A program made the position numbers and the translations under genes. The notes under the pieces were generated by a model. It was not told the origin of the DNA. It did not search any database and worked only from the letters and a program-made list of their open reading frames with translations. From the IMG/VR virus record IMGVR_UViG_2913112809_000002: 64,000 nucleotides of DNA; one strand, written 5' to 3'. The stretch is from a virus. Its lineage: Duplodnaviria > Heunggongvirae > Uroviricota > Caudoviricetes. Positions 11,411 through 27,789 of this stretch are shown here, piece after piece (positions within the stretch are counted from its first letter, which is position 1; every line of letters starts with the position of its first letter).

Positions 11411-11416
11411 GAAAGT

Positions 11417-11665: not shown

Positions 11666-11714
11666 ATTATTATCGCCATCAGCAGGAAGCTGGAAGCCAA
11701 ACGGAACAGATTGG

Positions 11715-11751
11715 CATGCTCTTTAACTTCGATGGGGCGCTGACAAAGCGC
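11715..11751 (+). promoter_or_regulatory. nutL (boxA gctctttaa; boxB gcgctgacaaagcgc, P22-type)
   Basis: boxB hairpin GCGC-TGACAAA-GCGC at 11737..11751 upstream of N. Confidence 0.6.
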
Positions 11752-11870
11752 AAACAGATACCAAACGAGATGGGTTTGGCGGTGATGTGAATTGCAGCTG
11801 CAACGACAGCAACCAGAAGATCAGCATCTGGCGCATCACCACCAAAGCCATTTCACATGAGGAAAACATC

Positions 11871-12206
11871 ATGACGGTAATCGTGTACGGAAAATCAACA
11901 TTTGCAGGAAATGCCAAAACTCGCCGTCATGAGCGGCGCAGAAAGCTTGCTATTGAGCGTGATGCTATCTGTAACATCATTGATTCTATCTTCGGCACAG
12001 ATAGTGAGGAACCTGTTCAGGAGGCCCCAAGAAAGCGTTTAAGCCTTTCTGAAAAAGCAATATCACTCGGAAGCCTTCGCTGCAAGAAGGCAGAAGAAGT
12101 CGAGCGTAAACAGAACCGTATTTACTACAGCAAGCCACGCAGTGAAATGGGTGTGACCTGTGTCGGTCGCCAGAAAATGAAATTAGGCAGCAAACCACTT
12201 ATTTGA
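11871..12206 (+). CDS. N: Antiterminator N (P22 gene 24-like arginine-rich motif, lambda-like C-terminus)
   Basis: ARM GNAKTRRHERRRKLAIERD; C-terminus YSKPRSEMGVTCVGRQKMKLGSKPLI resembles lambda N; SD gagga before ATG. Confidence 0.75.
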   Translation: MTVIVYGKSTFAGNAKTRRHERRRKLAIERDAICNIIDSIFGTDSEEPVQEAPRKRLSLSEKAISLGSLRCKKAEEVERKQNRIYYSKPRSEMGVTCVGRQKMKLGSKPLI

Positions 12207-12216
12207 GGACTGATAC

Positions 12217-12459
12217 ATGAGAGTAAAAACTATGGGCGCAAGCCCATTAAGCGGTCGTATTTTTCAAGGAACATTAAACACTGAAAAAGGAATGTGGGTA
12301 GGAAAAAAAGAAGATGTAACCGAACAGGCAGTTAAGGCAGTAACTGAACACCTGATGATAAAAGACCGGAAATATGCATACGAAACGAATGATGGCAAAT
12401 GGGTGATAATAATGCATCAACTGGTTGATGAATTACCAGAAGAGTTTATTGCTGATTAA
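12217..12459 (+). CDS. Hypothetical protein
   Basis: 80-aa ORF directly after N, AT-rich. Confidence 0.4.
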   Translation: MRVKTMGASPLSGRIFQGTLNTEKGMWVGKKEDVTEQAVKAVTEHLMIKDRKYAYETNDGKWVIIMHQLVDELPEEFIAD

Positions 12460-12490
12460 AATTATTTTGGCATAAACAACAGAAGCGAAG

Positions 12491-12688
12491 ATGTTGACAG
12501 TTGGTAAGTCATATTCAACTAAAAATGGAAAGACATTTAGTTGTGAAAAAGATATTGGAGAAATAGACACCATCTTTCCATTTGGTGGATGGGTATACAA
12601 TTCTGATGGAAGCAAAGACAGATTTGCATATTACACCAGAGGAGGTGCTTATAAACCAACCAAATCAGAATATGACTTAATTATTTAG
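12491..12688 (+). CDS. Hypothetical protein
   Basis: 65-aa ORF, AT-rich. Confidence 0.35.
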   Translation: MLTVGKSYSTKNGKTFSCEKDIGEIDTIFPFGGWVYNSDGSKDRFAYYTRGGAYKPTKSEYDLII

Positions 12689-12834
12689 CACAGAGAAGCA
12701 CTGTGTATTCATTCCAACGAGTGAATACACGGAGCAATGTCGCTCGTAACTAAACAGGAGCCGACTTGTTCTGATTATTGGAAATCTTCTTTGCCCTCCA
12801 GTGTGAGGGCAATTTTTTTGACGGAGAAATTATG

Positions 12835-13248
12835 AAAATTACAGATATTCTGGTTAATCCAGATAATTACGACCAATTCAATATCTCTACTAAATCGGTT
12901 GATTTGGGATGTGCAACTGTCAGCGCATGGCTACTTAATGGTAAACAGTTGGATAAATGCCTTGATGCACATATGACGGTTAACAGCTTCCTTGCAGAAA
13001 AGACACACTGGCAAGATGCTGGAGGGAAATATGCTGGATGGCTTGAAAGCATGGGATTTGAATATCAATCTGATGAAGGTTGGTGGAGCCTCATAGCTGT
13101 AACGCCTGAGACAATAGAATGCTTCGTTAAATACTCAAACGACGATGACTATAAACACCAGGTAGATTCTGCGATAGAAAGATATAGAAGAAAATCATTC
13201 AACCACGAAATATCATCAGTTCTTGATTTCATAGAAGTATTCAAATAA
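12835..13248 (+). CDS. Hypothetical protein
   Basis: 137 aa from MKITDILVNPDNYDQ..., SD ggag before ATG; preceded by hairpin and T-run at 12788..12823. Confidence 0.45.
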   Translation, partial: KITDILVNPDNYDQFNISTKSVDLGCATVSAWLLNGKQLDKCLDAHMTVNSFLAEKTHWQDAGGKYAGWLESMGFEYQSDEGWWSLIAVTPETIECFVKYSNDDDYKHQVDSAIERYRRKSFNHEISSVLDFIEVFK

Positions 13249-13331
13249 GCCGCCAAGAGCGGCTTTACCGCATACCAATAATGCTTCACCCGAGGCATTT
13301 CCGTTATGTGTAAATAAATAAGGAGCACACC

Positions 13332-13472
13332 ATGCAATATGTCATTGCAGGGTGGCCTGTTGCTGGCTGCCCTTCCGAATCTTTACTTGAACGAATCACC
13401 CGTAAATTACGTGACGGATGGAAACGCCTTATCGACATACTTAATCAGCCGGGAGTTCCAAAAAATGGATAA
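13332..13472 (+). CDS. cIII: CIII (protease FtsH inhibitor)
   Basis: Manual translation MQYVIAGWPVAGCPSESLLERITRKLRDGWKRLIDILNQPGVPKNG matches lambda CIII. Confidence 0.85.
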   Translation: MQYVIAGWPVAGCPSESLLERITRKLRDGWKRLIDILNQPGVPKNG

Positions 13473-13578
13473 AACACTTATGGCTATCCAGACTAAATTC
13501 ACTATCGCCACTTTTATTGGCGATGAAAAGATGTTTCGTGAGGCCGTCGAAGCCTACAGGAAATGGAGGTCAAAATGA
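13465..13578 (+). CDS. kil: Kil-like host-killing protein
   Basis: MDKTLMAIQTKFTIATFIGDEKMFREAVEAYRKWRSK; overlaps cIII end as in lambda. Confidence 0.55.
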   Translation: MDKTLMAIQTKFTIATFIGDEKMFREAVEAYRKWRSK

Positions 13579-13763
13579 TTCCGGTAGAACTGGCGAAAAC
13601 TCCAGAGTTAAGTCGATTAAAAAGAGAATATCACATTGCTGAGGCTCGTTACTGGCGTAAAGCGGGAGATAAATCAAAGAAACAACTTTGTTTATGGCAG
13701 GCACAAAGAGAGCGCATGAATGAGCGCGAGTTTCTTTCCTCCCCATCCGAATTACCATTCTGA
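13575..13763 (+). CDS. Hypothetical protein
   Basis: ATGA overlap with kil, SD ggagg. Confidence 0.35.
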   Translation: MIPVELAKTPELSRLKREYHIAEARYWRKAGDKSKKQLCLWQAQRERMNEREFLSSPSELPF

Positions 13764-13771
13764 GGCAAATT

Positions 13772-14452
13772 ATGGGAACTGCGACATTAATACTCGGTGA
13801 GTCTGGCACCGGAAAATCAACCAGCATGAGAAATATCAATCCCGAGGAAGCAATACTTATAAAACCAATAGGCAAGCCGCTACCATTTAAATCAAAAGAC
13901 TGGCTTGCATGGGATGCCAGAGCAAAAAAAGGAACCGTAGTTACCACTGACAAATGGGACGTAATAGTTGCCGTAATTAAGCGTGCTCACGAATACGGGA
14001 AAAGAATCGTTATTGTTGATGACTTCCAGTATGTGATGAGCAATGAGTTTATGCGCCGCTCAGAAGAAAAATCGTTTGATAAATTTACTGAGATAGGCCG
14101 CCACGCATGGGAGGTGATTAAGGCTGCACAGGATGCGCCTGATGACCTGAGAGTCTATTTTCTTGCCCATACCGAAGAAACCCCTATGGGGCGTGTGAAA
14201 ATGAAGACTATCGGCAAAATGCTGGACGAGAAAATCACTGTCGAAGGCATGTTTACTATAGTTCTTCGCACTCTTACCCGCGATGACCAGTTCTTTTTCA
14301 CCACGAAAAACAACGGTGCAGACACTGTTAAATCCCCAATGGGAATGTTTGATTCCAATGAGATTGATAACGATCTCTCTTTCGTCGATGCCACTGTTTG
14401 TGATTACTACGGCATCAATAATGTTCATCAAATTAAGGAAAACGCCGCATGA
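13772..14452 (+). CDS. P-loop ATPase (AAA_24/Sak4-like recombination-associated ATPase)
   Basis: Walker A GESGTGKS, Walker B RIVIVDDF; position of recombination module. Confidence 0.55.
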   Translation: MGTATLILGESGTGKSTSMRNINPEEAILIKPIGKPLPFKSKDWLAWDARAKKGTVVTTDKWDVIVAVIKRAHEYGKRIVIVDDFQYVMSNEFMRRSEEKSFDKFTEIGRHAWEVIKAAQDAPDDLRVYFLAHTEETPMGRVKMKTIGKMLDEKITVEGMFTIVLRTLTRDDQFFFTTKNNGADTVKSPMGMFDSNEIDNDLSFVDATVCDYYGINNVHQIKENAA

Positions 14453-15036
14453 GCAACGTGATTTTTACTTATAACGAAGAAGCAGCACTGACCGCAGGAC
14501 AAGGTGGTTTTATTAATGAAACTGGCGCTCATATTATTACCATTACTGAAGCAGAACTAAAGCAATCAGAAAAAGGAGCCAAATTTATTGAGTTTTCTGG
14601 AGAATCCGACGACGGACGTAAAATCCAATATCTTAGCGTTTGTGTTCAGAAAAATGACGGCACGGAAAACAAATTTGGCGCAAATGTCGTTCACGCCATG
14701 ATGGGGTGTGCCGGGATTGGGCAATTAACGCAACATATGGTTTCCGCCAGTAAATTTGTTGCACCTGAATTTCATGGAAAGAAAATCGGGTTAGTGCTCC
14801 AGAAAGTATTAACCACAAACAAAAAGACTGGCGCAGACAGCTACCAGATGGAAATACGCATCCCGTTTATTGCACAAACAGGTCAAACCCTTAAAGAAAA
14901 GGCGGAAGGCAAGCAACCAGAAACTATCGCCAACATGGTTGCCAGCCTCAAAGATAAAGACAATCGCTCTAAAAACGTAAGCCAGAATCATGCAGATGAT
15001 TATGGTTACAGCCAGAACGATTACCCTCCTTTCTGA
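14449..15036 (+). CDS. Hypothetical protein (DUF669-like partner of AAA_24 ATPase, by recollection)
   Basis: 195 aa, translationally coupled to the ATPase. Confidence 0.4.
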   Translation: MSNVIFTYNEEAALTAGQGGFINETGAHIITITEAELKQSEKGAKFIEFSGESDDGRKIQYLSVCVQKNDGTENKFGANVVHAMMGCAGIGQLTQHMVSASKFVAPEFHGKKIGLVLQKVLTTNKKTGADSYQMEIRIPFIAQTGQTLKEKAEGKQPETIANMVASLKDKDNRSKNVSQNHADDYGYSQNDYPPF

Positions 15037-15059
15037 TTATTGAAAATAAGGCTCCCATT

Positions 15060-15356
15060 ATGCCAGCGCCTCTGTATGGTGCGGATGACCCGCGCCGCTG
15101 TTCCGGCAATTCCGTATTGGAGGTGCTGGATAAATTCAGAAAAAACTACGACCTGATAATGTCGCTACCGCAGGAAACGAAAGAGGAAAAGGAATTTCGC
15201 CATTGTATATGGCTTGCAGAGAAAGAAGAACGCGAGCGAATTTACCAGACATTAATCCGACCATTCCGCAAAGCCACATATACCCACTTCCCTGAATATA
15301 TCGACTCGCGCCTACGTAATTACCGCTCACGCTATGGCGCTATCAGTAATGACTGA
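15060..15356 (+). CDS. Hypothetical protein
   Basis: 98-aa ORF. Confidence 0.35.
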
Positions 15357-15543
15357 GGAATTTACCATGAGAGGACTTGCATACAATCCCGGCATTCTTC
15401 CGGCAGAAATGATTATTCGCCAACGCGTAAAGCCAATGCCATCAAGAGAGGAATTACTTAAGAGAAATAGTTTCGGTTCTGTTAACGACAACAGATATCT
15501 TGAAATGATTTTGAGGAGTAAGAAGGATTATGTCAAAAAATGA
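15334..15543 (+). CDS. Hypothetical protein
   Basis: 69-aa ORF. Confidence 0.3.
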
Positions 15544-16108
15544 CATTTCATATGAATACCTCATTAGCAACATTCACTACGATAAAGAAACTGGGGTTTT
15601 CAAGAAGATAATTAAATCAAATAATGGGGATATAATTGGTTTCAAACCAACTGGCTGTACGCACTCGATGGGATACATAAGGATATATATTAATAAAAAA
15701 TGGTATTTAGCGCACAGACTAGCTTGGTTATATGTTACCGGGAAATGGCCAGTAAATGTAATTGATCACATCAACAGAAATAAAGCTGACAACAGGTTTA
15801 TTAACCTACGAGATGTCTCCAGTAGGGAAAACAATAGCAATACAAGTAGAAATAAAGGAACTGAAATAGGCACAGAAAGGTGTGCTTATGGATGGAGAGC
15901 ATACATAGGTGTTAATGGAAAACTACATCACCTTGGCTCATATGCAACATGTGATGGTGCAAAATATGCGTATGCTCTAGCAAAATATCAAGTAGAAATA
16001 TATGGTTACCTGCGCCCCACACCAATCGATTGCAGAAAATTAAATTACGGAAACAGGGGGAATCGTAATGGAAATCCTAAATCAAACCGTCGCAAGTTCC
16101 ATCAGTGA
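15530..16108 (+). CDS. HNH homing endonuclease
   Basis: [16 protein letters not shown]...[20 protein letters not shown] motif; AT-rich insertion-like. Confidence 0.75.
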
Positions 16109-16631
16109 ATCAAAACAAATATCTGAATGCGATGTGGCGGAGTGGGAAGAAATGAAACAAATGTCACTAATTGAGATGGATGGATTTCTGAAAGGTAAAT
16201 GCATCCCAAGTGATTTAAAGGTTAACGAAACAAACGCTGAATATCTGGTGCGTAAATTTGCTGAAGCAGAGGCCAAGTGCGCGGCGCTGGCAGCGGAGAA
16301 TGCGAGACTGAAGGTGATGTGTGAGGACCGCCGCAGGTTCATCATGAAAGGGGTGCAACTGGGGTATATCAAGGTGCCAAAAGCGGAAACAGATCCGGAC
16401 CTTGAGACAATTCGCATTGCTATATCACCACAAAAGCCCATTCCAGCCACCGATGCTTTCCTGGCTGAAGTACGGGCGCAGGGCGTGGAGATGCTGGCAA
16501 AAAATCATCAGAGTATCGTCAATGCACTTAAGGGAGATTCTTTATTTTCTGATGGTGAATACCGACATGCAGCTATTGTTTCCGCAGCTGTATATTTCGC
16601 CGCCCAGCTTCGCAAAGGAGGCAACCAGTGA
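16068..16631 (+). CDS. Ea22-like protein, N/middle part
   Basis: Shares ALAAENARLK..CDDRRRFIM..VQLG.IK...ETIRIAISPQKP motif with 62794..63372. Confidence 0.45.
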   Translation: MEILNQTVASSISESKQISECDVAEWEEMKQMSLIEMDGFLKGKCIPSDLKVNETNAEYLVRKFAEAEAKCAALAAENARLKVMCEDRRRFIMKGVQLGYIKVPKAETDPDLETIRIAISPQKPIPATDAFLAEVRAQGVEMLAKNHQSIVNALKGDSLFSDGEYRHAAIVSAAVYFAAQLRKGGNQ

Positions 16632-17113
16632 CTGGACATGCAACAATCCTCGACATGTGCTGTGGCAGTCGCATGTTCTGGTTCGATAAGAATGACGACC
16701 GGGCGATATTTAGCGATATCAGAAAAGAAGAGCACACATTGTGTGATGGACGACGCCTGATTATCAGTCCTGACCTGATAGCAGATTTTCGAGCATTACC
16801 ATTTGCAGACGCATCGTTTCCGGTTGTTGTATTCGACCCTCCGCATCTTGAGCGTGTTGGTGATAAAGCCTGGATGGGAAAGAAATATGGACGGCTGAAT
16901 AAAGATACCTGGCGTGATGATTTGCGGCAGGGATTTAAAGAAGCCTTTCGTGTGTTGTGGCCACATGGCGTTATGATTTTTAAATGGAATGAAACACAAA
17001 TACCTGTTCGCCAGATATTGGCACTGACCGACAGAAAGCCTGTTATCGGTCAACGAACAGGAAAGGGTGACAAGACCCACTGGATTATTTTTATGAAGGA
17101 GGGCAACCAGTGA
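16628..17113 (+). CDS. Putative DNA methyltransferase
   Basis: SAM-binding-like DMCCGSRMF and catalytic-like VVVFDPPH motifs; GTG start. Confidence 0.5.
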   Translation: MTGHATILDMCCGSRMFWFDKNDDRAIFSDIRKEEHTLCDGRRLIISPDLIADFRALPFADASFPVVVFDPPHLERVGDKAWMGKKYGRLNKDTWRDDLRQGFKEAFRVLWPHGVMIFKWNETQIPVRQILALTDRKPVIGQRTGKGDKTHWIIFMKEGNQ

Positions 17114-17310
17114 GCAAGATTGACTACCAGGAATTGGCTGCTGCTAACGCTTTCTTGGCGGATGTGCGGGCTGGGGCGTTTAACGACCTTTGCGCGGCGT
17201 TTGTCAGGAACGCAAAAATTGCAGGACTGGACGATGGCGATCTCGTTACGGTGAAAGAAGCGACCGATGCTCTGCTGCATTGTGTGGAACAGCTTCGCGC
17301 TCCAGAATAA
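17110..17310 (+). CDS. Ea22-like protein, short C-terminal form
   Basis: MSKIDYQ...AFNDLCAAFVRNAKIAGLDD...DALLHCVEQLRAPE homologous to ends of 62794..63372. Confidence 0.45.
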   Translation: MSKIDYQELAAANAFLADVRAGAFNDLCAAFVRNAKIAGLDDGDLVTVKEATDALLHCVEQLRAPE

Positions 17311-17840
17311 TTAAATTTAGTACTGTAAATAAAATTTAATCCTTAACCGGAGGGATTTCTGCACCCTCAGAACATCAGGAGGCCGCCCGAAAGGGCGGTA
17401 ATAAAAATGGCAGAATTAACTAAAGAATGGTTGCAACAAACAATTACTGATATTCAGGTCAATTGAGGTGAGAAACGCGGATGGAAAATTGTTTAGTGCC
17501 GTATCTGGTGCGGTTCGGGGCGTCGTCGTTAACAGTTGTGCCGCATGTCCTGGTGGCTGACAACGTCATCCCGGCACCGAAACGTCGTACCGGTATTGCA
17601 GCGGCACGCCGTGCAGCAAAGAAACGCAGGAGAGCAAAGCGATGAAAAACCGTAAAGCAAAACTGCTTACAGCAAAGCCCGGGCAGCTTATCCGCATCTC
17701 AAATCGACTTGTTGTTCGTTATGCGCCTTCTGGCCTTGCCAGGTGGTTACCAACGCATTTTTACGGTGTCAGGCGACGTAGAAGTGCGGCACAAAACCGC
17801 TGGAGAAATCACGGTTCTAGGCAAATTAAATGGGAGTGAT

Positions 17841-18059
17841 ATGACTACACTATTCAGGAAAAATTATCCGCGAAAGAGCAGAGCAACAGAATTCCTGTTT
17901 CTCATTCTGTTTATCGTGTTGATGATACCGATATCCCCGTTAATTCTGGTATGGGGAATCGGGAAAATAATTGAGCCAGTTATTGAATTGTATAACGACG
18001 TGGTATGGGCGTCGTTCAACGCACTACACAATAAAATTAATCCGTATAAGGAAAACTGA
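17841..18059 (+). CDS. Small membrane protein
   Basis: 72 aa from MTTLFRKNYP..., TM FLFLILFIVLMIPISPLILVWGIG, SD before ATG. Confidence 0.35.
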   Translation: MTTLFRKNYPRKSRATEFLFLILFIVLMIPISPLILVWGIGKIIEPVIELYNDVVWASFNALHNKINPYKEN

Positions 18060-18060
18060 T

Positions 18061-18591
18061 ATGACCACTATTACGAGAGAAAGCGCGGAGATTAAATCAT
18101 TCATCACTGGCTTCCTGAGCGACGCGGCGCACGATAACCAATCGTCAAACAGTCTGCTTGCTAATGTGTTTCGTATCGCACTGGCATCGCTGGAAGCAGA
18201 GCCGGTGGCGTGGAAGGCAACCTTCACGCAAATTGACAATGAATATAATACGTTCACTGCTCTGTATTCTGACAAAGCAGAAGTCGAACGGTGGGTGCGA
18301 CTGCATGAAATAGGTGACTTTCGGGCAGAAATAACACCGCTTTATACAGCCCAACCAGCGCCGGTAGCTCCAGATGGTTGGATAAGCTGTAGTGATGCAG
18401 TTCCTGCGGAATACTGCGATGTGATTCTTCGCGATGATCTCGGGAATGTATTCCCCGGTTCCTGGGATAAGGTTTTTTGCCCCATTCGTGGCGGGAATAA
18501 GATGGCTTTTGTGGACAAAGACGGCATCGAAGTAGAGAGCTCAACTCACTGGATGCCGCTACCGGAACCACCGCAGGAGGTGAATCGATGA
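18061..18591 (+). CDS. DUF551-like early-left protein
   Basis: MTTITRESAEIKSF...IALASLEAEPVAWK...; paralog of 63470..64000. Confidence 0.55.
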   Translation: MTTITRESAEIKSFITGFLSDAAHDNQSSNSLLANVFRIALASLEAEPVAWKATFTQIDNEYNTFTALYSDKAEVERWVRLHEIGDFRAEITPLYTAQPAPVAPDGWISCSDAVPAEYCDVILRDDLGNVFPGSWDKVFCPIRGGNKMAFVDKDGIEVESSTHWMPLPEPPQEVNR

Positions 18592-18755
18592 CCTGGCCTG
18601 AAGCATTCACAACGGTAGGAATTGCAATGGCGGTGGCGCTGGTGGTGTATTCGATTTGCCGCTGGGGTTGACGTAATTACTAATCCGGGGCTATATTTCC
18701 GACGCGCCAGCAAAATCTGGCGTCGGGATTAGCACCCCGGATGTTTACGGAGCGA

Positions 18756-18781
18756 TATGAGACGCGCCCGCGTCTTTTTTT
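18756..18781 (+). terminator. Intrinsic terminator ending early-left operon
   Basis: agacgcg-ccc-cgcgtct hairpin followed by T7. Confidence 0.55.
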
Positions 18782-18945
18782 CATATCGTTTGCACAGTCA
18801 CATTCGCGATTTATGGCGGGCTGTGTGGGGGAGCCGAAAGGCTCGCCGGTTTCCGTACCCGGTAGTGCTAACCCCGCACAGTTCGCCACCACGATGATTA
18901 GCACCTGACGGTGGCGATAATGTCCAAATGTACGGAGTAATCGTT

Positions 18946-19504
18946 ATGACCACTCAGATTTCTGTCGAAACTCTTTCCCCAATTACACACAACCAAATTC
19001 CCGTTATCACTACCGAGTTACTGGCACAGCTTTACTGTACCGAGATCAACAACATCAAAGTAAATTACACCCGTAATTCCGAGCGTTTTGTTGAGGGTAA
19101 ACACTTTTTCAAGATTGTTGGTGATGAGTTGAAAAAATTTGCGGGTTACTTTAAGTAACTCACAAACGCCTGTTTCCCCCAAAACCCGCTCCCTCATCCT
19201 CTGGACAGAACGCGGAGCAGCCCGCCACGCAAAAATGCTGGAAACCGAGCAGGCGTGGGAAGTGTTCGAAAAACTGGAAGACTGTTATTTCAGTCAGAAA
19301 CGCCCGGAAGAAAAAGCACCGGATTTTATGCCACGCCGCTTTCTTCTCACTCTGGTCAATAACCAGTGGTATGTTGAGCCTGTGTCTGCTGATGCGTTTG
19401 TGGCAACGCCGGACTCACTGGTGGCCAGGCTTCAGGCCGAGAGATATCTGTTCGATCAGCAGAGCATAAAGGAGATCATCCAGACCTGCCTGAAGATGAT
19501 TTAA
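18946..19504 (+). pseudogene. ORF6N/Rha-type antirepressor-like gene split over two frames
   Basis: First frame ends ...GDELKKFAGYFK*, second frame continues ...RSLILWTERGAARHAKMLETEQAWEVFEKLED. Confidence 0.35.
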
Positions 19505-19768
19505 AAATTCATTCCGATATGGGAATCCCCATATCGGGAGAATATTACCACCGGGGATAAAATGATTTGCGGTGAAAGGGAAGTTAAGTAGAATTGCTGC
19601 GGGTGCTTGAGGCTATCTGCCTCGGGCATGAATACCAACGGCAGATAGAGAAAAGCCCCAGTTAACATTACGCGTCCTGCAAGACGCTTAACATTAATCT
19701 GAGGCCATATCTATGCGACACATAGAGATTAGCCTCTTACGGACCGAAAGGTCAAGGAGAAGCAGGCT

Positions 19769-19924
19769 ATGAAGCAGCAAAAGGCGATGTTAATCGCCCT
19801 GATCGTCATCTGTTTAACCGTCATAGTGACGGCACTGGTAACGAGGAAAGACCTCTGCGAGGTACGAATCCGAACCGGCCAGACGGAGGTCGCTGTCTTC
19901 ACAGCTTACGAACCTGAGGAGTAA
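19769..19924 (+). CDS. hok: Hok/Gef family type I toxin
   Basis: Manual translation MKQQKAMLIALIVICLTVIVTALVTRKDLCEVRIRTGQTEVAVFTAYEPEE (51 aa). Confidence 0.85.
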   Translation: MKQQKAMLIALIVICLTVIVTALVTRKDLCEVRIRTGQTEVAVFTAYEPEE

Positions 19925-19993
19925 GAGTGACCAGGCGAGGGAGAAATCCCTCGCCGCCTCTGACGTGTCAGGCATTCTCAAAGCACCCGCACT

Positions 19994-20025
19994 TAACCCG
20001 CTTCGGCGGGTTTTGTTTTTTTCTG
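19994..20025 (+). terminator. Terminator-like hairpin after hok
   Basis: cccgcttcggcggg hairpin followed by T-run. Confidence 0.45.
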
Positions 20026-20093
20026 GCATTCTGGTTTACAATCCACTCGTCAGCCTGAACAACTGACACCTGCTGCGCCAGCAGAGAAAACCG

Positions 20094-20372
20094 ATGGCGC
20101 AAAATTCCAGACCACACAATTCTGATAATTCAGCCGTCTTTGCCAGCAGGCACGGGCGGCGTTCCCGCACATTCAAATCTGACTGGTTCCAGCACGACCC
20201 ATGCACTGAAGAACAAGCCGAATGGCTAATTCAGAACTACCGCAGACGTGGGTATGAGTTTCAGAAAGACCTCAGTCTTGACTTCCGACACTGGATAATC
20301 TCAGTCAGGCTGCCGTACTCCGAGCGCCCACCGCGTCCATCCCGCACATTCCAGCAACGGATCTGGAGGTAA
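20094..20372 (+). CDS. Hypothetical protein (position of rem in Qin-type prophages)
   Basis: 92-aa ORF after hok. Confidence 0.4.
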   Translation: MAQNSRPHNSDNSAVFASRHGRRSRTFKSDWFQHDPCTEEQAEWLIQNYRRRGYEFQKDLSLDFRHWIISVRLPYSERPPRPSRTFQQRIWR

Positions 20373-20373
20373 T

Positions 20374-20934
20374 GTGAGAGCATTACTGACACCTGAAATT
20401 GCCCCGCGTATGGGGATCGTACTGTTCAGGCCAGGTTCAGAGCTGATGCCATTGTTTATGCAGGGGCGTGTCTTGCTGGAGCCTGAGCCGGAACGTTATT
20501 CATCTTTTGCCAGTGGTGTCGTTCCGGCGGCATCGCAACCGCTGGCGGATGATCCTGTCGTTCGGGCCGTATTCCGCAATGAGGCAGTGATCCGTCGTGC
20601 AGGTGGCGTGGAATGCCTTGAAAGCTGGTTACTTCGTGAAAAAGGCTGTCAGTGGCCTCATTCTGACTGGCACAGCGAGAACATGACCACAATGCGTCAC
20701 GCGCCGGGAGCAATCCGTTTGTGCTGGCACTGCGATAATCAACTGCGCGATCAGTTCACAGAACGGTTGGAATCAATGGCAACGGATAACTGCGTCCGTT
20801 GGGTGTTGTCTGTTGTCCGTCGGGATCTCGGTTTTGATGAAAGTCACGTTGTGACAATGCCGGAACTGTGTTGGTGGCTGGTTCGTAATGACCTGGCGGA
20901 TGCCTTACCTGAAAGCGCAGCCCGTAGGCTCTGA
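20374..20934 (+). CDS. DUF968-like protein, N-terminal portion
   Basis: 186-aa ORF; may be first half of a split ydfU-like gene. Confidence 0.4.
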   Translation: MRALLTPEIAPRMGIVLFRPGSELMPLFMQGRVLLEPEPERYSSFASGVVPAASQPLADDPVVRAVFRNEAVIRRAGGVECLESWLLREKGCQWPHSDWHSENMTTMRHAPGAIRLCWHCDNQLRDQFTERLESMATDNCVRWVLSVVRRDLGFDESHVVTMPELCWWLVRNDLADALPESAARRL

Positions 20935-20951
20935 GATTACCGAAGCCTGCT

Positions 20952-21362
20952 GTGCAGTCTGTCACTCGGGAAAGTGACCTCGTACCTTCAGTTCCGGCCA
21001 CCAGCATCATCCAGGATAAAGCGAAAAAGGTGCTGGCGCTGAAAGTGGATCCGGAATCGCCGGAGTCTTTTATGTTACGCCCCAAACGTCGCCGCTGGGT
21101 TAACGAAAAGTACACGCGCTGGGTTAAGACACAGCCGTGTGCATGTTGTGGTAAGCCAGCCGACGATCCCCATCACCTGATTGGTCACGGTCAGGGAGGG
21201 ATGGGGACAAAAGCCCACGATATTTTCACGCTACCGCTGTGCCGGGAGCATCACAACGAACTTCATGCTGATCCGCTGGCATTTGAAGAAAAGCATGGTT
21301 CCCAGATTGATTTAATTTTTCGTTTTCTTGATCACGCCTTTGCAACCGGCGTGCTTGGGTAA
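20952..21362 (+). CDS. DUF968-like C-terminal portion with HNH-like Cys/His motif
   Basis: CACCGKPADDPHHLIGHGQGG...CREHHNELH; frame differs from upstream ORF; true start uncertain. Confidence 0.4.
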   Translation: MQSVTRESDLVPSVPATSIIQDKAKKVLALKVDPESPESFMLRPKRRRWVNEKYTRWVKTQPCACCGKPADDPHHLIGHGQGGMGTKAHDIFTLPLCREHHNELHADPLAFEEKHGSQIDLIFRFLDHAFATGVLG

Positions 21363-21374
21363 AAGAGGTTACTG

Positions 21375-21734
21375 ATGCGTATAGAGTTTGTTTTGCCTTA
21401 CCCGCCGACGGTGAACACCTACTGGCGACGTCGTGGCAGCATATATTTTGTATCAAAAGCCGGTGAGCGTTATCGCCGTGATGTGGCGCTTATTGTTCGT
21501 CAGCAGCGGCTGAAATTAAACCTGTCCGGAAGGCTGGCGATAAAGATTATTGCAGAGCCACCGGATAAGCGCCGTCGTGACCTGGACAATATTCTGAAAG
21601 CTCCACTGGATGCGCTGACGCATGCCGGACTACTCATAGACGACGAGCAGTTTGATGAAATCAATATTGTGCGCGGTCAGCTCGTTCCTGGTGGGCGGCT
21701 GGGGATAAAAATCACAGAACTGGAGTGCGCATGA
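21375..21734 (+). CDS. rusA: Holliday junction resolvase RusA
   Basis: 119 aa with DKRRRDLDN...LIDDEQ RusA motifs. Confidence 0.85.
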   Translation: MRIEFVLPYPPTVNTYWRRRGSIYFVSKAGERYRRDVALIVRQQRLKLNLSGRLAIKIIAEPPDKRRRDLDNILKAPLDALTHAGLLIDDEQFDEINIVRGQLVPGGRLGIKITELECA

Positions 21735-22420
21735 ATAACCAGTATTTACAGTTTGTTCGTGAGCAACTCATGATTGCCACCGCCGATTTGAGTGGAGCAA
21801 CAAAAGGACAGCTTGAGGCCTGGCAGGAGAATGCCATGCTTGAAACAGGGCGTTACAGGCGTAAAAAAATCCGGTACCGCGATGAAGTGACCGGAAAAAT
21901 GATAACGCGGGATAATCCACCAATCCCGGGAAAACAATCGCTTGCGAAAGGTTCGTCAATTCCTCTGGTAAGTCAGGTTGAGTTTTCGACATCATCATGG
22001 CGACGGGCAGTTCTGTCTCTTGAAGAACATCATAAAGCCTGGTTGTTGTGGTGTTACAGCGGCAGCATTTGCTGGGAACACCAGATCGCGATAACGCAGT
22101 GGGTGTGGAATGAATTTAACGCACAATCCGGTACCAGAAAAATTGCAGGGAAAACGCTGGAGCGCCTGAAAAAATTAATCTGGCTGGCGGCACAGGATGT
22201 CAGAGGATGGATTACCGGGCGTGAGGTCTACCAGCGACAGGAACTTGCCAGGCTGTGTGGAATTAAACCTGACAACTGGAGCCATAATTATGCGAACTAC
22301 TGGCGTGAGATGTGCGACATTTTTAAGAATCTTGATACAGAATCCTTGATTTGCACAGTGAAAATGAGAACGCAACAAAAAGCGACCTTTTCGCGACGAG
22401 ATGTTGCAAAAATCAATTAA
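21725..22420 (+). CDS. Late antiterminator Q-like protein (Qin quuQ-type)
   Basis: 231 aa; position before terminator, tRNAs and lysis genes. Confidence 0.6.
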   Translation: MRMNNQYLQFVREQLMIATADLSGATKGQLEAWQENAMLETGRYRRKKIRYRDEVTGKMITRDNPPIPGKQSLAKGSSIPLVSQVEFSTSSWRRAVLSLEEHHKAWLLWCYSGSICWEHQIAITQWVWNEFNAQSGTRKIAGKTLERLKKLIWLAAQDVRGWITGREVYQRQELARLCGIKPDNWSHNYANYWREMCDIFKNLDTESLICTVKMRTQQKATFSRRDVAKIN

Positions 22421-22484
22421 ATCGCGTACATTTCGTGTAAATTTGATATTTTGCCGATTTTATACGCGATGGCAAAGCAAGCAA

Positions 22485-22510
22485 AACCCGCCGCCGAGCG
22501 GGTTTTTTTA
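22485..22510 (+). terminator. tR'-like terminator after second Q
   Basis: cccgc-cgccgagc-gggtt hairpin followed by T7. Confidence 0.5.
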
Positions 22511-22744
22511 TGTCCGCAAAATGGCGTGGAAGAAAAAATTAATCAGATTGTAACTGAGATAAAAAACAATCGTTAAATATGCATTTAATAATTTCTTTAT
22601 TTCATAAAAAATAAAAACATATACGTATATTTACAAATCTTGATATGATTTTCCATTGAAAAGAGAGCTGGTATTATTAATATCGGTCCCCGGTTCCGAA
22701 GGGGATGTAAGCGCGGTCATTTTTATTTCTCTTGAGGAACCAAT

Positions 22745-22820
<76 letters not shown>

Positions 22821-22823
22821 TAT

Positions 22824-22898
<75 letters not shown>

Positions 22899-23120
22899 TA
22901 GTAGTAAGGCGAGATTGTGTTATGCACTGACACATTATATATGTGGGGATGGTTTTTGGCCTCTTTATCCACGTCCCGTTCTGTAATGAGTGATACCAAT
23001 TGCAGTCCAGTGCTATTTTTTTACACCATCGGAATGGTGCATCATCCCGATGTTGTAAACATCGCTAAACGTGACATTGAGATTAATCATATATTAATCA
23101 AAATCTGGTAATACATCCTT

Positions 23121-23148
23121 AACCGCCGAACCAGGCGGTTTTTTTTAT
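23121..23148 (+). terminator. Intrinsic terminator after tRNA pair
   Basis: accgcc-gaacca-ggcggt hairpin followed by T9. Confidence 0.55.
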
Positions 23149-23420
23149 TTCTTCTCCGGACAAAAAAAAGACACGAGCATCCTGGAATACTCGTGGGACA
23201 AGGTACTTGGTTAGCAATTTGCGAGAGGGTGAAAAAAATGGCGCGGCTGTCGGATTAAAGCCGCGGGACAAAGTCCATGAAGAATAATAAGTATCAGTCT
23301 CCTACAGGAGACGAGTTGATATTACTAAGCTTTAAAAATGGTTTAAATCCTCAGATTAACCTTAATTTCAGGTAAGTCTTATTTCATTTCTTCGCGCCGC
23401 GCCCGGCGCACATCAAAAAC

Positions 23421-23524
23421 CACAGAGCCTTTCAGGGGTGAGCTTACGGGATGGTCAGTGTGACTTTCTCTGTGGGCTGGTCACTCCTGGGGCGCAGGCT
23501 CACCCACTAAAAGGAAAAGTCACG
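23421..23524 (+). promoter_or_regulatory. Conserved ~100-nt leader element, copy B1
   Basis: Homologous to 25646..25754 and to minus-strand 640..760. Confidence 0.45.
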
Positions 23525-23950
23525 ATGTTTGGTATTTTCAAAAAGAAAACCCGCAAGGCCATTACCGAAGTGAAGAAGATGGAGAACCGCGACGCAGTGG
23601 AGGCGACCGTCTGGGGTGCGTATTCCATTGCATACGCTGACGGCACCTGTGACGCGAAAGAAATCGCGGTACTGGAGAAAACCATTGCAGCACTTCCTGC
23701 CTTTGCGCCGTTCTCCGGTGAGATTGCACAAATGAGCGCAAATATCCGCGCCCGTTATGAAGCGTCACCGCGTAGCGCGAATGCTCAGGCATTGCGTGAA
23801 CTGGCTGATGTGGCAGGAACAGACGACGCGGTGAATGTGCTGTGCCTGTGTCTGGATATCGCTGACCAGGATGGAATTGGTCCGGAGGAAGAAGCACAAC
23901 TCAAGAAAATTGCTCAGGCGCTTCAGCTACCGCTGGAGCAGTACCTGTGA
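23525..23950 (+). CDS. TerB-like domain protein (cargo between tRNAs and lysis genes)
   Basis: 141 aa MFGIFKKKTRKAITEVKKMENRDAVEATVWGAYSIAYADG..., helical; TerB assignment from recollection only. Confidence 0.45.
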   Translation: MFGIFKKKTRKAITEVKKMENRDAVEATVWGAYSIAYADGTCDAKEIAVLEKTIAALPAFAPFSGEIAQMSANIRARYEASPRSANAQALRELADVAGTDDAVNVLCLCLDIADQDGIGPEEEAQLKKIAQALQLPLEQYL

Positions 23951-24037
23951 AAAGTGCGCGCCTTGTGCTGGCTGCCATCCTGCTGTTTCTGGTAGTGGCG
24001 GTGGATTTCACCGGACGGCTGATGTCGGTGCTGGCAG

Positions 24038-24583
24038 ATGGTGTGCTGGTGGCGATGGTGCTGGTCGTGCTCCGGCCTTTACTGCGCAAATCTGAATAAC
24101 ACCACACAAAAGGCATCTGCGGGTGCCTTTGACGGGGTGTTGTTTTTTACGGGCCGCTGGTGGCCCTTTTTTATTTGCAGGAGAAGTTATGGCAGCAGAA
24201 CCTTGTCTGGTGGCGGGGCGGTGGGGCTGACGATAGGTGGAGCCAGTGTATTCGGGATTCTGACCAACACCGATTTCGGCGTGGTTATTGGCGCGTTTGC
24301 AGGGGCGCTTTTTGTTGTCACACAGCAAAAGGAAGTGCCTGTCTGGCGGATGTGTATCCACCTGCTGGTTGCTTTCGTGGTTGGCGTACTTGGTGCGGGT
24401 GTGGCTGCGTCTTTCATGCAGTGGTTAACGCACTACGACGACAAGCCACTGGACGCTCTGTGTGCGGTTGGTGTTTCAGCCCTGTCAATTAAGGCGCTGA
24501 CGTTCCTGTATCAGCAGGAGATTACATCGCTGTTCGGTTTTCTGACGAAGCTGCGCGGCGGAGGAGGAGGAAATGGTAAGTGA
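24038..24583 (+). CDS. Membrane protein (2-3 TM), possible holin/antiholin; start uncertain
   Basis: Hydrophobic segments; good RBS+ATG at 24189 is in a different frame. Confidence 0.3.
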   Translation: MVCWWRWCWSCSGLYCANLNNTTQKASAGAFDGVLFFTGRWWPFFICRRSYGSRTLSGGGAVGLTIGGASVFGILTNTDFGVVIGAFAGALFVVTQQKEVPVWRMCIHLLVAFVVGVLGAGVAASFMQWLTHYDDKPLDALCAVGVSALSIKALTFLYQQEITSLFGFLTKLRGGGGGNGK

Positions 24584-24848
24584 TGTTGCCGGGCAGGTGA
24601 ATGTATTCGTCTGTGTGGCTGTTGTGCTGGGATTGCTCGTGTTCCGGTGGAGGGATGCGGCCCACAAACCCGTCATGGCCTGGCTGACTTATCTGCTGAT
24701 GCTGGGATACGCAATTATTCCGCTGCGCTGGCTTTACGGTACCTACATGCAGTCGAGCTGGCTGGTCGTGGTGCTGAATCTTGTTTTCTGCGCACTGATA
24801 GTCTGGTCGCGTGGAAACGTATCAAAAATTATTTCATTACGGAGGTGA
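24573..24848 (+). CDS. Putative holin (three TM helices)
   Basis: 91 aa, SD ggagga before ATG, immediately upstream of endolysin. Confidence 0.45.
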   Translation: MVSDVAGQVNVFVCVAVVLGLLVFRWRDAAHKPVMAWLTYLLMLGYAIIPLRWLYGTYMQSSWLVVVLNLVFCALIVWSRGNVSKIISLRR

Positions 24849-24850
24849 GT

Positions 24851-25228
24851 ATGCCGGGGAAATTCAGATTCAGTCGTCGTAGCGAAAAAAATCTGGAGGG
24901 CGTCAAACCACAGCTGGTTGCCGTTGTTCGCCGTGCGCTGGAACTGACGGATGTTGATTTCGGTATTACGGAAGGTCTGCGCACGAAAGAACGCCAGAAA
25001 CAGCTGGTTGCTGAAGGAAAAAGCCAGACCATGAACAGCCGCCACCTGACCGGTGATGCGGTGGATGTTGTGGCCTACATTGGCAGCCAGGTGTCATGGG
25101 ACTGGCCTCTGTACGAGAAAATCGCGCATGCATTTAAGCAGGCTGCCGCAGAGCTGGGAACTGCCATCGAATGGGGTGGGGACTGGCGGACGCTTAAAGA
25201 CGGCCCACATTTTCAATTGAAACGATAG
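24851..25228 (+). CDS. Endolysin, peptidase M15 family (L-alanyl-D-glutamate peptidase type)
   Basis: MPGKFRFSRRSEKNLEGVKPQLVAV...H..D..DV...W.DGPHFQL motifs. Confidence 0.7.
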   Translation: MPGKFRFSRRSEKNLEGVKPQLVAVVRRALELTDVDFGITEGLRTKERQKQLVAEGKSQTMNSRHLTGDAVDVVAYIGSQVSWDWPLYEKIAHAFKQAAAELGTAIEWGGDWRTLKDGPHFQLKR

Positions 25229-25298
25229 CTTGCAAAACATACAGGGCCGCCATGAGCGGCTTTTTTATTGCTCAAAAAACGAAAGAACGGAGGTACGT

Positions 25299-25580
25299 AT
25301 GTACGCACTGAAAAAAATTACGGTAACTGAAGATGGTCGCCAGGTTGAGGAAGTGCATGTCCTGGGGGATATGTATCGTCTGGAATTTTACCCGCGTAAT
25401 ACCCATCTTGCAGCGCAGGTTGAGTATTGTCGGGACGGGAATATTCCATGCATTTCTGTAGAAAAAACGGATGAGGCTTATATCACTACGCTGAATGGCG
25501 ATACGGTGCGTTGCATTTGTCGCGGTGACAGCAAAGCCCGGAATGAAATAGCCAGATGTCGCGCCCATACAGATAAATAA
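25299..25580 (+). CDS. Hypothetical Cys-rich protein
   Basis: 93 aa, between terminator-like hairpins. Confidence 0.35.
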   Translation: MYALKKITVTEDGRQVEEVHVLGDMYRLEFYPRNTHLAAQVEYCRDGNIPCISVEKTDEAYITTLNGDTVRCICRGDSKARNEIARCRAHTDK

Positions 25581-25645
25581 AAAGCAAAATACAAGGCTGC
25601 AACGAGTGGCCTTGTTTATCTCAGCACTTCGCACGGTGCGCATAA

Positions 25646-25754
25646 AACAGAGAATCTTTCAGGATGAGCCTTGAGGAAAACCGGTAGTGGTCTGGTTAAC
25701 CCTCTCTGGCTGGTTATTCCTGTGCGCAAGGTTCATCACTAAAAGGAATAAACC
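25646..25754 (+). promoter_or_regulatory. Conserved ~100-nt leader element, copy B2
   Basis: Homologous to 23421..23524; ends at ATG of antirepressor. Confidence 0.45.
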
Positions 25755-26450
25755 ATGAACGAGATGATTTCTGTCGATCATGAAATATCCATGAGCAGTC
25801 TGGACTTCCTGAATAACATTATTAATCCAGCTCGTATAGAGGCTGGAGAAGTCCCTCACGAACCGCGTAAGTTTCTTGCAAAAATTGAAGACGAGCTTGA
25901 GCTTGATGGAACCGGAAAAAAATTCCGGTTAAACAATAACCAGACAAGAACAGCATATTACGATCTGGACTTCGACCAAATGATGCTCGTTGGCATGAGA
26001 GAGTCTAAGGCTGTTCGGCGTTCTGTGCTGGCAAGACTTAAAGCGATGCACGGTATACAAATTCCTCAGACCTTACCTGATGCATTGCGATTTGCGGCAA
26101 AATTGGCAGAGCAAAAAGCAGAGCTGGAAAATAAACTGGCAATAGCGGCACCGAAAGCTGAATTTGTTGATAATTATGTTGAGGCATCCGGCCTGATGGG
26201 GTTCAGGGAGGTTGCTAAATTGCTCGGTATTAGAGAAACCGATTTCCGGCTGTTTTTGCTGGAGAACGGCATAATGTATCGTCTTGCCGGAAAAATGACG
26301 CCTTACTCACATCACCTGGATGCTGGTCGTTTTAGCGTGAAAACCGGAGAAGCAGGCAATGGTCATGCTTTTACACAGGTTAAGTTCACTCCAAAAGGCA
26401 TTCAGTGGGTTGCTGGCTTGATCGCTGCTTGGAGAGCCACCGCAGCATGA
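25755..26450 (+). CDS. Antirepressor-like protein (KilA-C-type C-terminal domain)
   Basis: 231 aa; C-terminal FVDNYVEASGLMGFREVAKLLGIRETDFRLFLLENGIMY. Confidence 0.6.
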   Translation: MNEMISVDHEISMSSLDFLNNIINPARIEAGEVPHEPRKFLAKIEDELELDGTGKKFRLNNNQTRTAYYDLDFDQMMLVGMRESKAVRRSVLARLKAMHGIQIPQTLPDALRFAAKLAEQKAELENKLAIAAPKAEFVDNYVEASGLMGFREVAKLLGIRETDFRLFLLENGIMYRLAGKMTPYSHHLDAGRFSVKTGEAGNGHAFTQVKFTPKGIQWVAGLIAAWRATAA

Positions 26451-26543
26451 ACACGAAACAAACATACTGGAAGTTTTTACTCATATGGATAATTCCATTC
26501 TTGTGGGTGCGGCCCAATTGATTACAGCCATTAAGGGATAAAC

Positions 26544-26678
26544 ATGTCGGATAAAATGGTAAAGCTGGCACAGATCCTCTGTGTGATAACTGGTCTTTCA
26601 TTTTCGGTAATGCTGGTGGCTATTTTCATTTCCACAGCCTGGATGGCGTTGAGTTCATCCGGATTGATTGGTGGATAG
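26544..26678 (+). CDS. Small membrane peptide (44 aa)
   Basis: MSDKMVKLAQILCVITGLSFSVMLVAIFISTAWMALSSSGLIGG; SD before ATG. Confidence 0.3.
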   Translation: MSDKMVKLAQILCVITGLSFSVMLVAIFISTAWMALSSSGLIGG

Positions 26679-26682
26679 CGAG

Positions 26683-26865
26683 ATGAAGCGGAAGCACTGG
26701 ACACACAGAATGCCTCGAGCGGCGGCAAAATGGGCACTGGTAGCGATACCGGTGCCTTTTTTATTGGCGGGATGCGTCAGCCTAGATAAGGCGCGTCAGC
26801 TTTTCGATACGGCTTCTCAGGTTTGCCAGCTTATTGATGGCGTTCGGCGGTGCACACAGAATTGA
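26683..26865 (+). CDS. Putative small lipoprotein
   Basis: Lipobox LLAGC after a basic N-terminus; weak RBS. Confidence 0.35.
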   Translation: MKRKHWTHRMPRAAAKWALVAIPVPFLLAGCVSLDKARQLFDTASQVCQLIDGVRRCTQN

Positions 26866-27789
26866 TCGCTTGTAAGAGTAGAATATTTTGCTGAAAAATG
26901 AAGGGTGCGCCAGCGTCCGGAAAGCATGAAATTCTGTGTTTGTGGCTACTCAATAAAATAAATTCTTTCTGTCGCCGCGAATACTCAAATGTTGATCAGT
27001 GCCCGGTGCGGCGACGGGCTTCGATATCAGGAGACGATGATGGAAGCAACAGAAGATGATCGTCATCCTGGTTGTCCGGTATTTGCCTGCATGAAATTAC
27101 CGGAAGGCGCAGTCGTTACTAAGTAACAGGCATTACAGCAGCCCTTCTGTGAGGGGCTGCGATAATGCAACACAGGAATAAAAACCGGCCAGGGAGAATC
27201 CGTTAAAGGTCTGCCGGTGGCGAAAGATAGCCAAGGCGTCAACTTACGCTATTGCTCATGGTGATGCAATGCATCGCCCTAATGAAGTTAATAGATCTCT
27301 GATTTATCTCTGCGCGTCGTATCGTCGCCGTATTCCCGCATTAACAGAGACCGCAGCCCGATGGGAAGCTCTTCTGCGCGAGTGTGCAGGAATAATCAAA
27401 AACGATGCACACCGGGTTTTTACCGCGCTATTGATTCGCGGGTTTGTCCCTCATGCTCGCCAGTCCTGTGCGAGGTTGGAAGAAACAGGGCATGTATTCA
27501 GGAGCGTGCGACCGTGGTCGCACGGTATCTTTGTCAGGAGGTTGTGATGAAAGAGTCGCAGAAATTTAATTCAAAAATGGAACGATTCAGTTCTCCTGAG
27601 CGAGAGGCTTACAACATGCATTCATTGAGTGCCTGTTGTAATATCGCCAAACATTAATCAGGTGCACGAGATGTCGGCTAATACTGACCCTGACGAAATG
27701 TGGCGCTGCTTTAATCTGAAAGATGGTGCAGACGACCTGTAGTTCGCATCCATTCCTGATTACCCTATTCAAGTTGATGAGACAGAAAC

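Follow-up and report, generated by a model that had tools for sequence, protein, structure and literature searches.

Characterised relatives of the locus

The element considered here is a hok-family type I toxin locus in a 64,000-nucleotide stretch of DNA from a virus of the Caudoviricetes (IMG/VR record IMGVR_UViG_2913112809_000002), which is called the window below, always at its full length. The closest characterised relative is hokW-sokW of the Stx2 prophage Sp5, which like the locus of the window belongs to a lambda-like phage genome, in its case an Stx2 phage of the 933W type, and which was shown experimentally to be a toxin–antitoxin system of type I with a Sok RNA of 71 nt, HokW being toxic and sokW neutralising it (Takada et al. 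2021, PMC8621323). After mitomycin C treatment the sokW RNA vanishes in a manner that depends on RecA, and HokW is seen about 1 h earlier than the endolysin; when the locus is deleted, growth arrest comes about 40 min later and phage release drops by half (PMC8621323).

The plasmid-borne hok/sok (parB) system of R1, for which post-segregational killing was demonstrated, has an mRNA that can switch its structure. In the full-length mRNA the translational activator element (tac) is paired with the fold-back inhibitory element (fbi) and the Shine–Dalgarno (SD) sequence with ucb, and upon truncation these pairings give way to tac/ucb and SD/dcb (PMC9841398). A 3' stem-loop is required for the stability of the trimmed mRNA (PMC9841398).

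Escherichia coli K-12 carries hokC/mokC/sokC (gef) and hokB/mokB/sokB as chromosomal loci outside prophages, and hokD (relF) in the Qin prophage. The toxicity of HokD is well established.

An intact cassette of the hokD/hokW lineage

The locus at approximately 19559-20022 of the window is very probably an intact hok/mok/sok type I toxin–antitoxin cassette of about 464 bp, belonging to the hokD/hokW lineage, and it is with similarly high probability a self-contained module of the kind that lambda-like prophages carry. The original prediction, made from the letters of the sequence, had recognised a 51-aa Hok/Gef open reading frame (ORF) at 19769..19924 followed by a terminator-like hairpin, and had expected the mok leader and Sok within the approximately 210 nt upstream of hok (19560..19770). 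All these parts could now be placed (Table 1): mok and Sok both lie in the expected interval, and the terminator hairpin was found at 19995..20012, with a T-run to 20022.

The ORF encodes the protein MKQQKAMLIALIVICLTVIVTALVTRKDLCEVRIRTGQTEVAVFTAYEPEE, which matches PF01848 over the whole model with 82.9 bits (cut-off 22; E=1.2e-23). All 51 residues are identical to those of K-12 HokD, and 47 of the 51 (92%) to those of HokW. An NCBIfam scan gave matches to Hok-family and HokA models that were all below threshold, and none to a HokD model. Upstream of the ORF, the Rfam model RF01794 ('sok') is matched over its full length (model 1-157) by 19601..19771 on the plus strand (101.3 bits, gathering score 59; E=8e-22). 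The notion that the ORF and the hairpins are chance features and that there is no hok locus at all, to which the small size of the ORF lends some appeal and nothing else does, has a negligible probability in view of these Pfam and Rfam matches, the 100% identity with HokD, and the thousands of homologous loci that have been annotated.

The other elements were placed in a MAFFT alignment of 62 loci, which included the window, R1-type hok/sok, hokC and hokB of K-12, phage Rac and 50-odd others. This alignment with characterised hok/sok loci, which the original prediction had proposed as a check, located mok, the Sok promoter, fbi and tac. The R1 hok/sok sequence was confirmed by 100% identity in more than 2600 plasmids.

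Table 1 Features of the hok/mok/sok cassette and their positions in the window
Feature	Position	Strand	Details	Basis
hok promoter (putative)	19566..19594	+	-35-like TTTGCG 19566-71, 17-nt spacer, -10 TAGAAT 19589-94	Homology, inferred
Full-length hok mRNA (predicted)	19601..20022	+	~420 nt	Rfam model start, R1 alignment, terminator
tac, translational activator element	19601..19612	+		mRNA 5' end; nearly invariant in 62 homologues
ucb	19653..19659	+	Anti-SD of mok, AAGCCCC	Pairing in both folds
Leader hairpin	19661..19697	both	Sok terminator stem on the opposite strand; 13 pairs	91% of cells paired
Sok-target hairpin holding mok AUG	19710..19726	+	Loop CGACA 19716-20	Covariation
mok	SD 19701-04, ATG 19713, UGA 19770-72	+	SD GAGG; 19 codons (MRHIEISLLRTERSRRSRL)	Conserved start
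dcb	19732..19736	+	GCCUC; pairs with mok SD in trimmed mRNA	Matches R1 mok SD/dcb stem
Sok promoter (putative)	19755 to 19726	-	-35 TTGACC 19755 to 19750, 18-nt spacer, -10 TAATCT 19731 to 19726	Homology
Sok RNA (predicted)	19719 to 19651	-	~69 nt; start near G19719, U-tail 19654-51	Homology and structure
hok	SD 19754-59, ORF 19769..19924	+	SD AAGGAG; 51 aa	Pfam HOK_GEF
GC-rich 3' stem-loop	19934..19955	+	No T-run	In both minimum free energy folds
fbi, fold-back inhibitory element	19976..19988	+	UCUCAAAGCACCC	12 pairs with tac in minimum free energy fold
Intrinsic terminator of hok mRNA	19995..20022	+	AACCCGC-TTCG-GCGGGTT, then TTGTTTTTTT

The nucleotide identity with hokW-sokW over the cassette is 91%, and the two belong to the same lineage, sharing the leader, tac, ucb, a 16-nt extension of the leader hairpin, fbi and the position of the Sok promoter. 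They differ at the C-terminus of Hok (FTAYEPEE in the window, FVDYESEK in HokW), in the Sok promoter hexamers, which in the window (TTGACC/TAATCT) are closer to consensus than those of hokW-sokW (TTGCC(T)/TAACCT), in the AACCCGC...GCGGGTT terminator, which the Sp5 copy lacks, and in the mok frame that is discussed below. The R1 system has the same architecture, with the same predicted switch (tac/fbi, ucb, dcb), a mok-coupled hok and an antisense Sok, and its promoters and start codons are found at positions homologous to those of the window, whereas its sequence has diverged to such an extent that blastn does not join the two; among plasmids, R1-type hok/sok as a whole was not reached by a 'distant' blastn search with the cassette. 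The R1 leader furthermore has a different insertion in its 5' hairpin, its Sok stem is without the 16-nt extension, and R1 hok/sok is carried by a plasmid, whereas the cassette of the window resides in a prophage. The chromosomal hokC and hokB loci of K-12 have a leader that is homologous to that of the window (about 76% identity to hokC) and encode Sok RNAs of 57-59 nt, again lacking the extension.

The comparison with K-12 hokD is of a different kind. This gene encodes the same 51-aa protein, its nucleotide identity with the window is 96% from 19755 to 20020, and its downstream neighbourhood is the same, with a DUF968/ydfU gene followed by a Q antiterminator gene. However, hokD of K-12 sits 3' of relBE and is devoid of the hok promoter, tac, ucb, the mok start, the Sok promoter and Sok. 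It is a truncated copy that became fused behind relBE, and the complete form is that of the window, which is better compared with hokW-sokW. The absence of relBE-like genes upstream of hok, as noted in the original prediction, is borne out by the upstream ORFs of the window, which are ORF6N/antirepressor-like, and by the homology with K-12, which begins only at 19755.

Hok-like DNA is very common. It was matched in 4728 of 5426 complete E. coli genomes (87%), at a median of 2 and up to 10 places per genome, and 2160 complete E. coli genomes carry at least 80% of the 601-nt query; in these genomes the gene is named hokD in RefSeq. The best identity over the locus among complete E. coli genomes does not exceed 95.8%, and the best cassette identity in GTDB representative genomes, found via a Hok protein scan, is about 92-93%. 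The window probably stems from Escherichia or Shigella. Hok-like DNA is likewise present in temperate phages, among them mEp460, Evi, HannyBb, Tritos, Rac and Stx phages, and, with about 88% identity, in many non-mobilizable plasmids of about 90-100 kb. The hok/sok cassette is already known and widely annotated, and the window holds an ordinary copy in its usual prophage place, of which the recurrent short mok frame is the sole mildly interesting point.

Two side observations concern the gene and its distribution. Codon 47 of hok (19907-19910) is TAC followed by G, which gives a UACG motif, and this hok copy may be editable at that codon, from Tyr47 to Cys. Hundreds of non-mobilizable plasmids of about 85-120 kb from E. 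coli, Salmonella and E. fergusonii carry a hokD-type cassette that is about 88-90% identical; these may be P1-like phage-plasmids.

The leader, its predicted switch and Sok

The consensus of RF01794 opens with the tac sequence and closes in the hok AUG, so that the match marks the leader of the hok mRNA, in which the complement of Sok is found, rather than the strand of Sok itself. Since the model matches the hok-sense strand, annotation based on Rfam would put 'sok' on the wrong strand and make it about 100 nt too long. For the 5' end of the hok mRNA, which was set near G19601, the start of the R1-type sequence was assumed to be the +1 of the mRNA. A TAnnAT-type hexamer about 7 nt upstream of the 5' end of tac is kept in 9 of 10 aligned hok loci, the R1-type row being less clear. 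The putative hok promoter to which it belongs appears to be weak, with a poor -35 sequence.

For the full-length RNA (19601-20022) a minimum free energy (MFE) fold of -176.2 kcal/mol was obtained, with z = -7.97 relative to shuffled sequences. In this fold 12 pairs join 19601-12 to 19976-88 (tac/fbi), the hok SD is paired, and G19655-C19659 of ucb pair with the mok SD at 19701-05. When the RNA is trimmed at its 3' end (19601-19977), the MFE fold has tac paired with 19653-59 (ucb) and the mok SD with 19732-36 (dcb), and the hok SD becomes free. The predicted folds of the full-length and trimmed forms reproduce the R1 switch exactly. By analogy with R1, the 3' stem-loop at 19934-19955 would protect the trimmed mRNA at its 3' end.

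These structures are conserved in the alignment. The 46 pairs of the leader are 93.9% paired across the 62 loci, with 14 of them changed on both sides, whereas controls in which the partner was slid reached 32-47%. In the hairpin that holds the mok AUG, changes on both sides were found among the homologues for five of the six pairs, and for tac/fbi 90.1% of the cells are paired, compared with 35-58% for a slid partner. The 16-nt GC-rich extension of the leader hairpin (19671-19686) is specific for a clade and occurs in 47 of the 62 aligned loci; R1, hokC, hokB and the Erwinia-type loci do not have it.

What could have spoken against the locus, absence of an antisense promoter or complementary element upstream of hok, was not encountered: both promoter hexamers and a hairpin with a U-tail are present on the minus strand. 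The sequence and the predicted structure thus point to an antisense Sok RNA that has its own promoter and terminator and is complementary to the mok start. The hexamers and the spacer of the promoter are conserved across the aligned loci, and the K-12 sokC and sokB RNAs annotated in RefSeq map to 19719 to 19645 of the window. In a 77-nt version, Sok is predicted to fold (-31.9 kcal/mol, z = -5.1) into a single-stranded 5' tail, a long hairpin that ends in CUGGGG, and a U-rich tail (CUUUU); the loop and the 5' arm of the mok-AUG hairpin are complementary to its predicted 5' end.

The data on hokW-sokW bear on this assignment. All eight oligonucleotides of the study on Sp5 that were checked map exactly onto Stx2 phage I (L180), and the 71-nt sokW corresponds to the Sok stretch of the window, in which the window has a 2-nt deletion. 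In the 'pro-less' construct of Takada et al. (2021) TAGGTTA was replaced, by which protection from HokW was lost (PMC8621323). On the Sok strand the replaced sequence is the sokW -10 hexamer TAACCT; it aligns with 19727-33 of the window, where its counterpart is the putative Sok -10 TAATCT.

A further hairpin was considered as the Sok terminator and rejected. It lies at 19514-19537, outside the conserved cassette, and is common to only 1 of 119 contigs that carry the same allele. The hairpin itself is an inverted repeat of 10 bp without mismatches, reading CCGATATGGG-GATT-CCCATATCGG on the minus strand, which is located just past the stop codon of the upstream ORF and looks like a terminator on that strand.

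The short mok frame

The mok UGA overlaps with the hok AUG in the sequence AUGA, and mok runs across the hok SD. The mok ATG is conserved in 60 of the 62 aligned loci, whereas the reading frame that follows it is not. Long mok ORFs of 55-70 codons in the +1 frame are found in R1 (70 codons), phage Rac and Kluyvera loci, and mokB of K-12 encodes 55 aa. In hokW and in K-12 hokC the upstream start is in frame with hok, which gives an extended Hok; for hokW this is an ORF of 70 aa, and it is a 2-nt difference that makes mok of the window stop at AUGA. Each of the three possible mok frames is thereby represented among hok loci. Short mok frames that end in AUGA occur in three separate lineages: the prophage clade of the window, the hokC-type loci found in E. 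ruysiae and in E. whittamii, and loci from Erwinia/Kalamiella. The exact mok allele of the window, represented by a 32-mer, was found in at least 119 IMG/VR contigs.

Mutagenesis of R1 has shown that stop codons past the hok start leave Hok unaffected and that only the first 19 codons of mok are needed (PMC9841398). The short mok of the window can thus be expected to work, plausibly through termination and reinitiation. Whether the 19-codon mok with its AUGA overlap represents a distinct functional mode of coupling by termination-reinitiation, which has arisen repeatedly, is in our judgement an evenly balanced question.

Genomic context and the junction of the two blocks

The borders of the module can be derived from the 119 contigs with the same allele. 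On the left, homology ends at 19552-19599, mostly at 19559 (n=69), and on the right it ends at 20011-20022 (n=57) or at 20387-20395 (n=38). Since the homology ends at 19559 and at 20011-20022, the cassette spans its own promoter to its own terminator, and it is a discrete module of the mosaic with small local joints at about 19559 and about 20020.

In the window, hok is preceded by a DUF551 gene (17971-18591) and an isrK/C4/ORF6N insert (18667-19552), and is followed by a 92-aa ORF and by genes for DUF968, RusA and Q. The DUF551, hok, DUF968, RusA and Q genes are all on the plus strand. E. coli EC21Z-048 has replication genes and small ORFs first, then DUF551, hokD, two small ORFs, DUF968, RusA, Q and lysis genes, and a similar order is present in phage pPE4, phage Rac and K-12 Qin (hokD-rem-ydfU-Q). 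Both in the window and in the E. coli relatives hok is therefore found in the rightward early operon, upstream of Q and in the same orientation. In K-12 Qin, phage Rac and EC21Z-048, hok is followed by a rem-like gene, which the window does not have. The 92-aa ORF (20094-20372), which directly follows the hok terminator, was considered as a rem-like gene and rejected as such, as its matches are the second of the small genes behind hokD in EC21Z-048, a hypothetical gene, and unannotated K-12 DNA between rem and ydfU. The DUF968 (ydfU-like) gene (20374-21362) is broken, with a 186-aa ORF that ends at Pfam position 27 and a 136-aa ORF that starts at position 37, compared with 351 aa for the intact homologue of EC21Z-048; either a frameshift has made it a pseudogene or the sequence contains an error.

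The original prediction had placed hok exactly where the early-left region of one phage-derived block gives way to the nin/Q region of another, and on this point it has to be corrected. The first block (block A) is HK629-like and O121-prophage-like, and its early-left homology ends at 16277-16631, which is the end of the homologue of HK629 gp35 (ORF 16068-16631). Homology of the second block (block B) to the pR-distal genes of the right operon of an ordinary E. coli prophage begins at 16616, and the ORF at 16628-17113 matches a methyltransferase-like gene that is located downstream of the replication genes in such a prophage. The true junction is at 16616-16632, and hok is located about 3 kb further right, inside block B, which excludes a seam at hok.

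Block A has a cI-like repressor gene (9758-10465) and an early-left operon (N/kil/Sak4/SSB/Abc2/HNH) on the plus strand, the latter running rightward, and on the minus strand O, DnaB, NinB/X/G, phosphatase, lambda-type Q, two tRNA, lysozyme and Rz genes; its nin region is without hok. The genes that follow gp35 in HK629, which are gp34, ea22, eag, xis and int, are all missing from block A, as is attP. Block B has no immunity and replication region of its own. As a side observation, the architecture is mirror-like (1-16631 / 16616-30000), with the early-left operon of block A leading straight into the DUF551-hok-DUF968-RusA-Q-tRNA-lysis-terminase arm of block B. Early-left transcription from block A could thus drive Q of block B. 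The two Q proteins are from different Pfam families (Antiterm and Phage_antiter_Q), and two tRNA genes come after each Q gene, Thr(TGT)+Asn(GTT) in the left arm (2123-2278, minus strand) and Thr(TGT)+Gly(TCC) in the right arm (22745-22898, plus strand).

Between DUF551 and hok, at 18691-19504, the window also carries a module that resembles immunity I of P1/P7, with Rfam matches to c4-a1b1 (18691-18743), isrK (18704-18780) and the C4 antisense RNA (18809-18893). A frameshift has probably broken its ORF6N antirepressor-like gene, which now occupies two overlapping frames (18928-19158 and 19139-19504). The homologous module of phage pPE4 is located downstream of Q instead.

Proposed mechanism and possible roles

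The mechanism outlined here consists of steps that were shown for R1 and Sp5; toxicity, Sok expression and 3' processing of the copy in the window are inferred by analogy. Transcription from the weak promoter would yield a stable mRNA of about 420 nt that is translationally closed by the tac/fbi pairing and by the masking of the mok SD by ucb. Slow trimming of the 3' end would remove fbi, after which tac could refold onto ucb and the mok start would become open to ribosomes as well as to Sok. Ribosomes that translate the 19 codons of mok would cross the hok SD and stop at the UGA overlapping the hok AUG, by which translation of hok would be coupled to that of mok, and Hok, a 51-aa inner-membrane toxin, would then be made. 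The short-lived Sok of about 69 nt would pair with the mok start region and block mok and thereby hok, with cleavage of the duplex by RNase III. When Sok synthesis stops, Hok would be made, and prophage induction, loss of the element and shut-off of transcription can be envisaged as triggers. By analogy with Sp5, the most likely role in this prophage is that the cassette hastens membrane damage and lysis after induction. One may speculate that antiterminated transcription from the early-left promoter (pL) of block A, running through hok in the same direction, could silence the convergent Sok promoter upon induction.

Several points weigh against an active cassette with this role. A generic scan for sigma-70 consensus promoters over 19400-20150, on both strands, gave none; the hok and Sok promoters each score 8/12 in consensus scoring, which is below the threshold of the scan, and both promoter calls thus rest on homology. 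Covariation of tac/fbi is weak, with only 2 pairs changed on both sides, as can be understood from the fact that tac and fbi are almost invariant, and MFE folds of RNAs of 400 nt are approximate. The frameshifts in the neighbouring DUF968 and ORF6N genes suggest that the prophage is decaying, and since block B has no immunity and replication region of its own, the role linked to induction that was shown for Sp5 may not transfer. Chromosomal hok loci that were tested earlier gave no post-segregational killing (bioRxiv 10.1101/2025.08.07.668861).

If the cassette is active, its main role could also be stabilisation of the prophage by post-segregational killing, or abortive infection, in which an invader that shuts off host transcription would cause Sok to decay, so that the lysogen is protected from other phages. 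Such a role is a real possibility, but a distinctly less probable one than assistance of lysis. R1 hok/sok kills post-segregationally and cut T4 plating by 42% (PMC8621323), hok genes are about 4-fold enriched in prophages (bioRxiv 10.1101/2025.08.07.668861), and in a rearranged and probably defective prophage lysis assistance would be of little value. Yet the only direct experiment on a prophage copy of this lineage showed that phage release was promoted, with no effect on normal growth (PMC8621323), and hok genes are not enriched near defence systems (bioRxiv 10.1101/2025.08.07.668861); the sequence itself does not discriminate between the roles. It is also conceivable, but quite unlikely, that the cassette is intact in sequence and physiologically silent, as a selfish remnant that hitch-hikes in prophage mosaics. 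Such an idea was suggested before for chromosomal hok loci, and it would agree with hokA, hokB and hokC of the chromosome showing neither post-segregational killing nor activation by rifampicin (bioRxiv 10.1101/2025.08.07.668861), with K-12 hokD being a truncated relic from which everything 5' of 19755 is gone, and with the frameshifted flanking genes and lost functions of block B. It is difficult to reconcile with the presence and conservation of every regulatory element, with the activity of hokW-sokW, the closest characterised relative, in its native prophage (PMC8621323), and with the fact that at least 119 viral contigs have kept the same allele, in a cassette whose boundaries are sharp. 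Assistance of lysis after induction is kept as the leading explanation.

Significance

For annotation, the consequence is that a complete hok/mok/sok cassette with the coordinates of Table 1 should be given instead of a lone 'hokD' ORF. The corrected seam at 16616-16632 matters for reconstructing how the two prophage blocks were joined. The cassette is the untruncated counterpart of K-12 hokD, and it shows that this lineage travels in the mosaics of lambda-like phages as a sharply bounded module of about 464 bp. The short mok allele offers a natural test case for the notion that translation is needed only up to the hok start. If the proposed mode of coupling is true, the short mok would be a natural replicate of the R1 result on the first 19 codons, and it might tune how tightly Hok output tracks the translation of mok.

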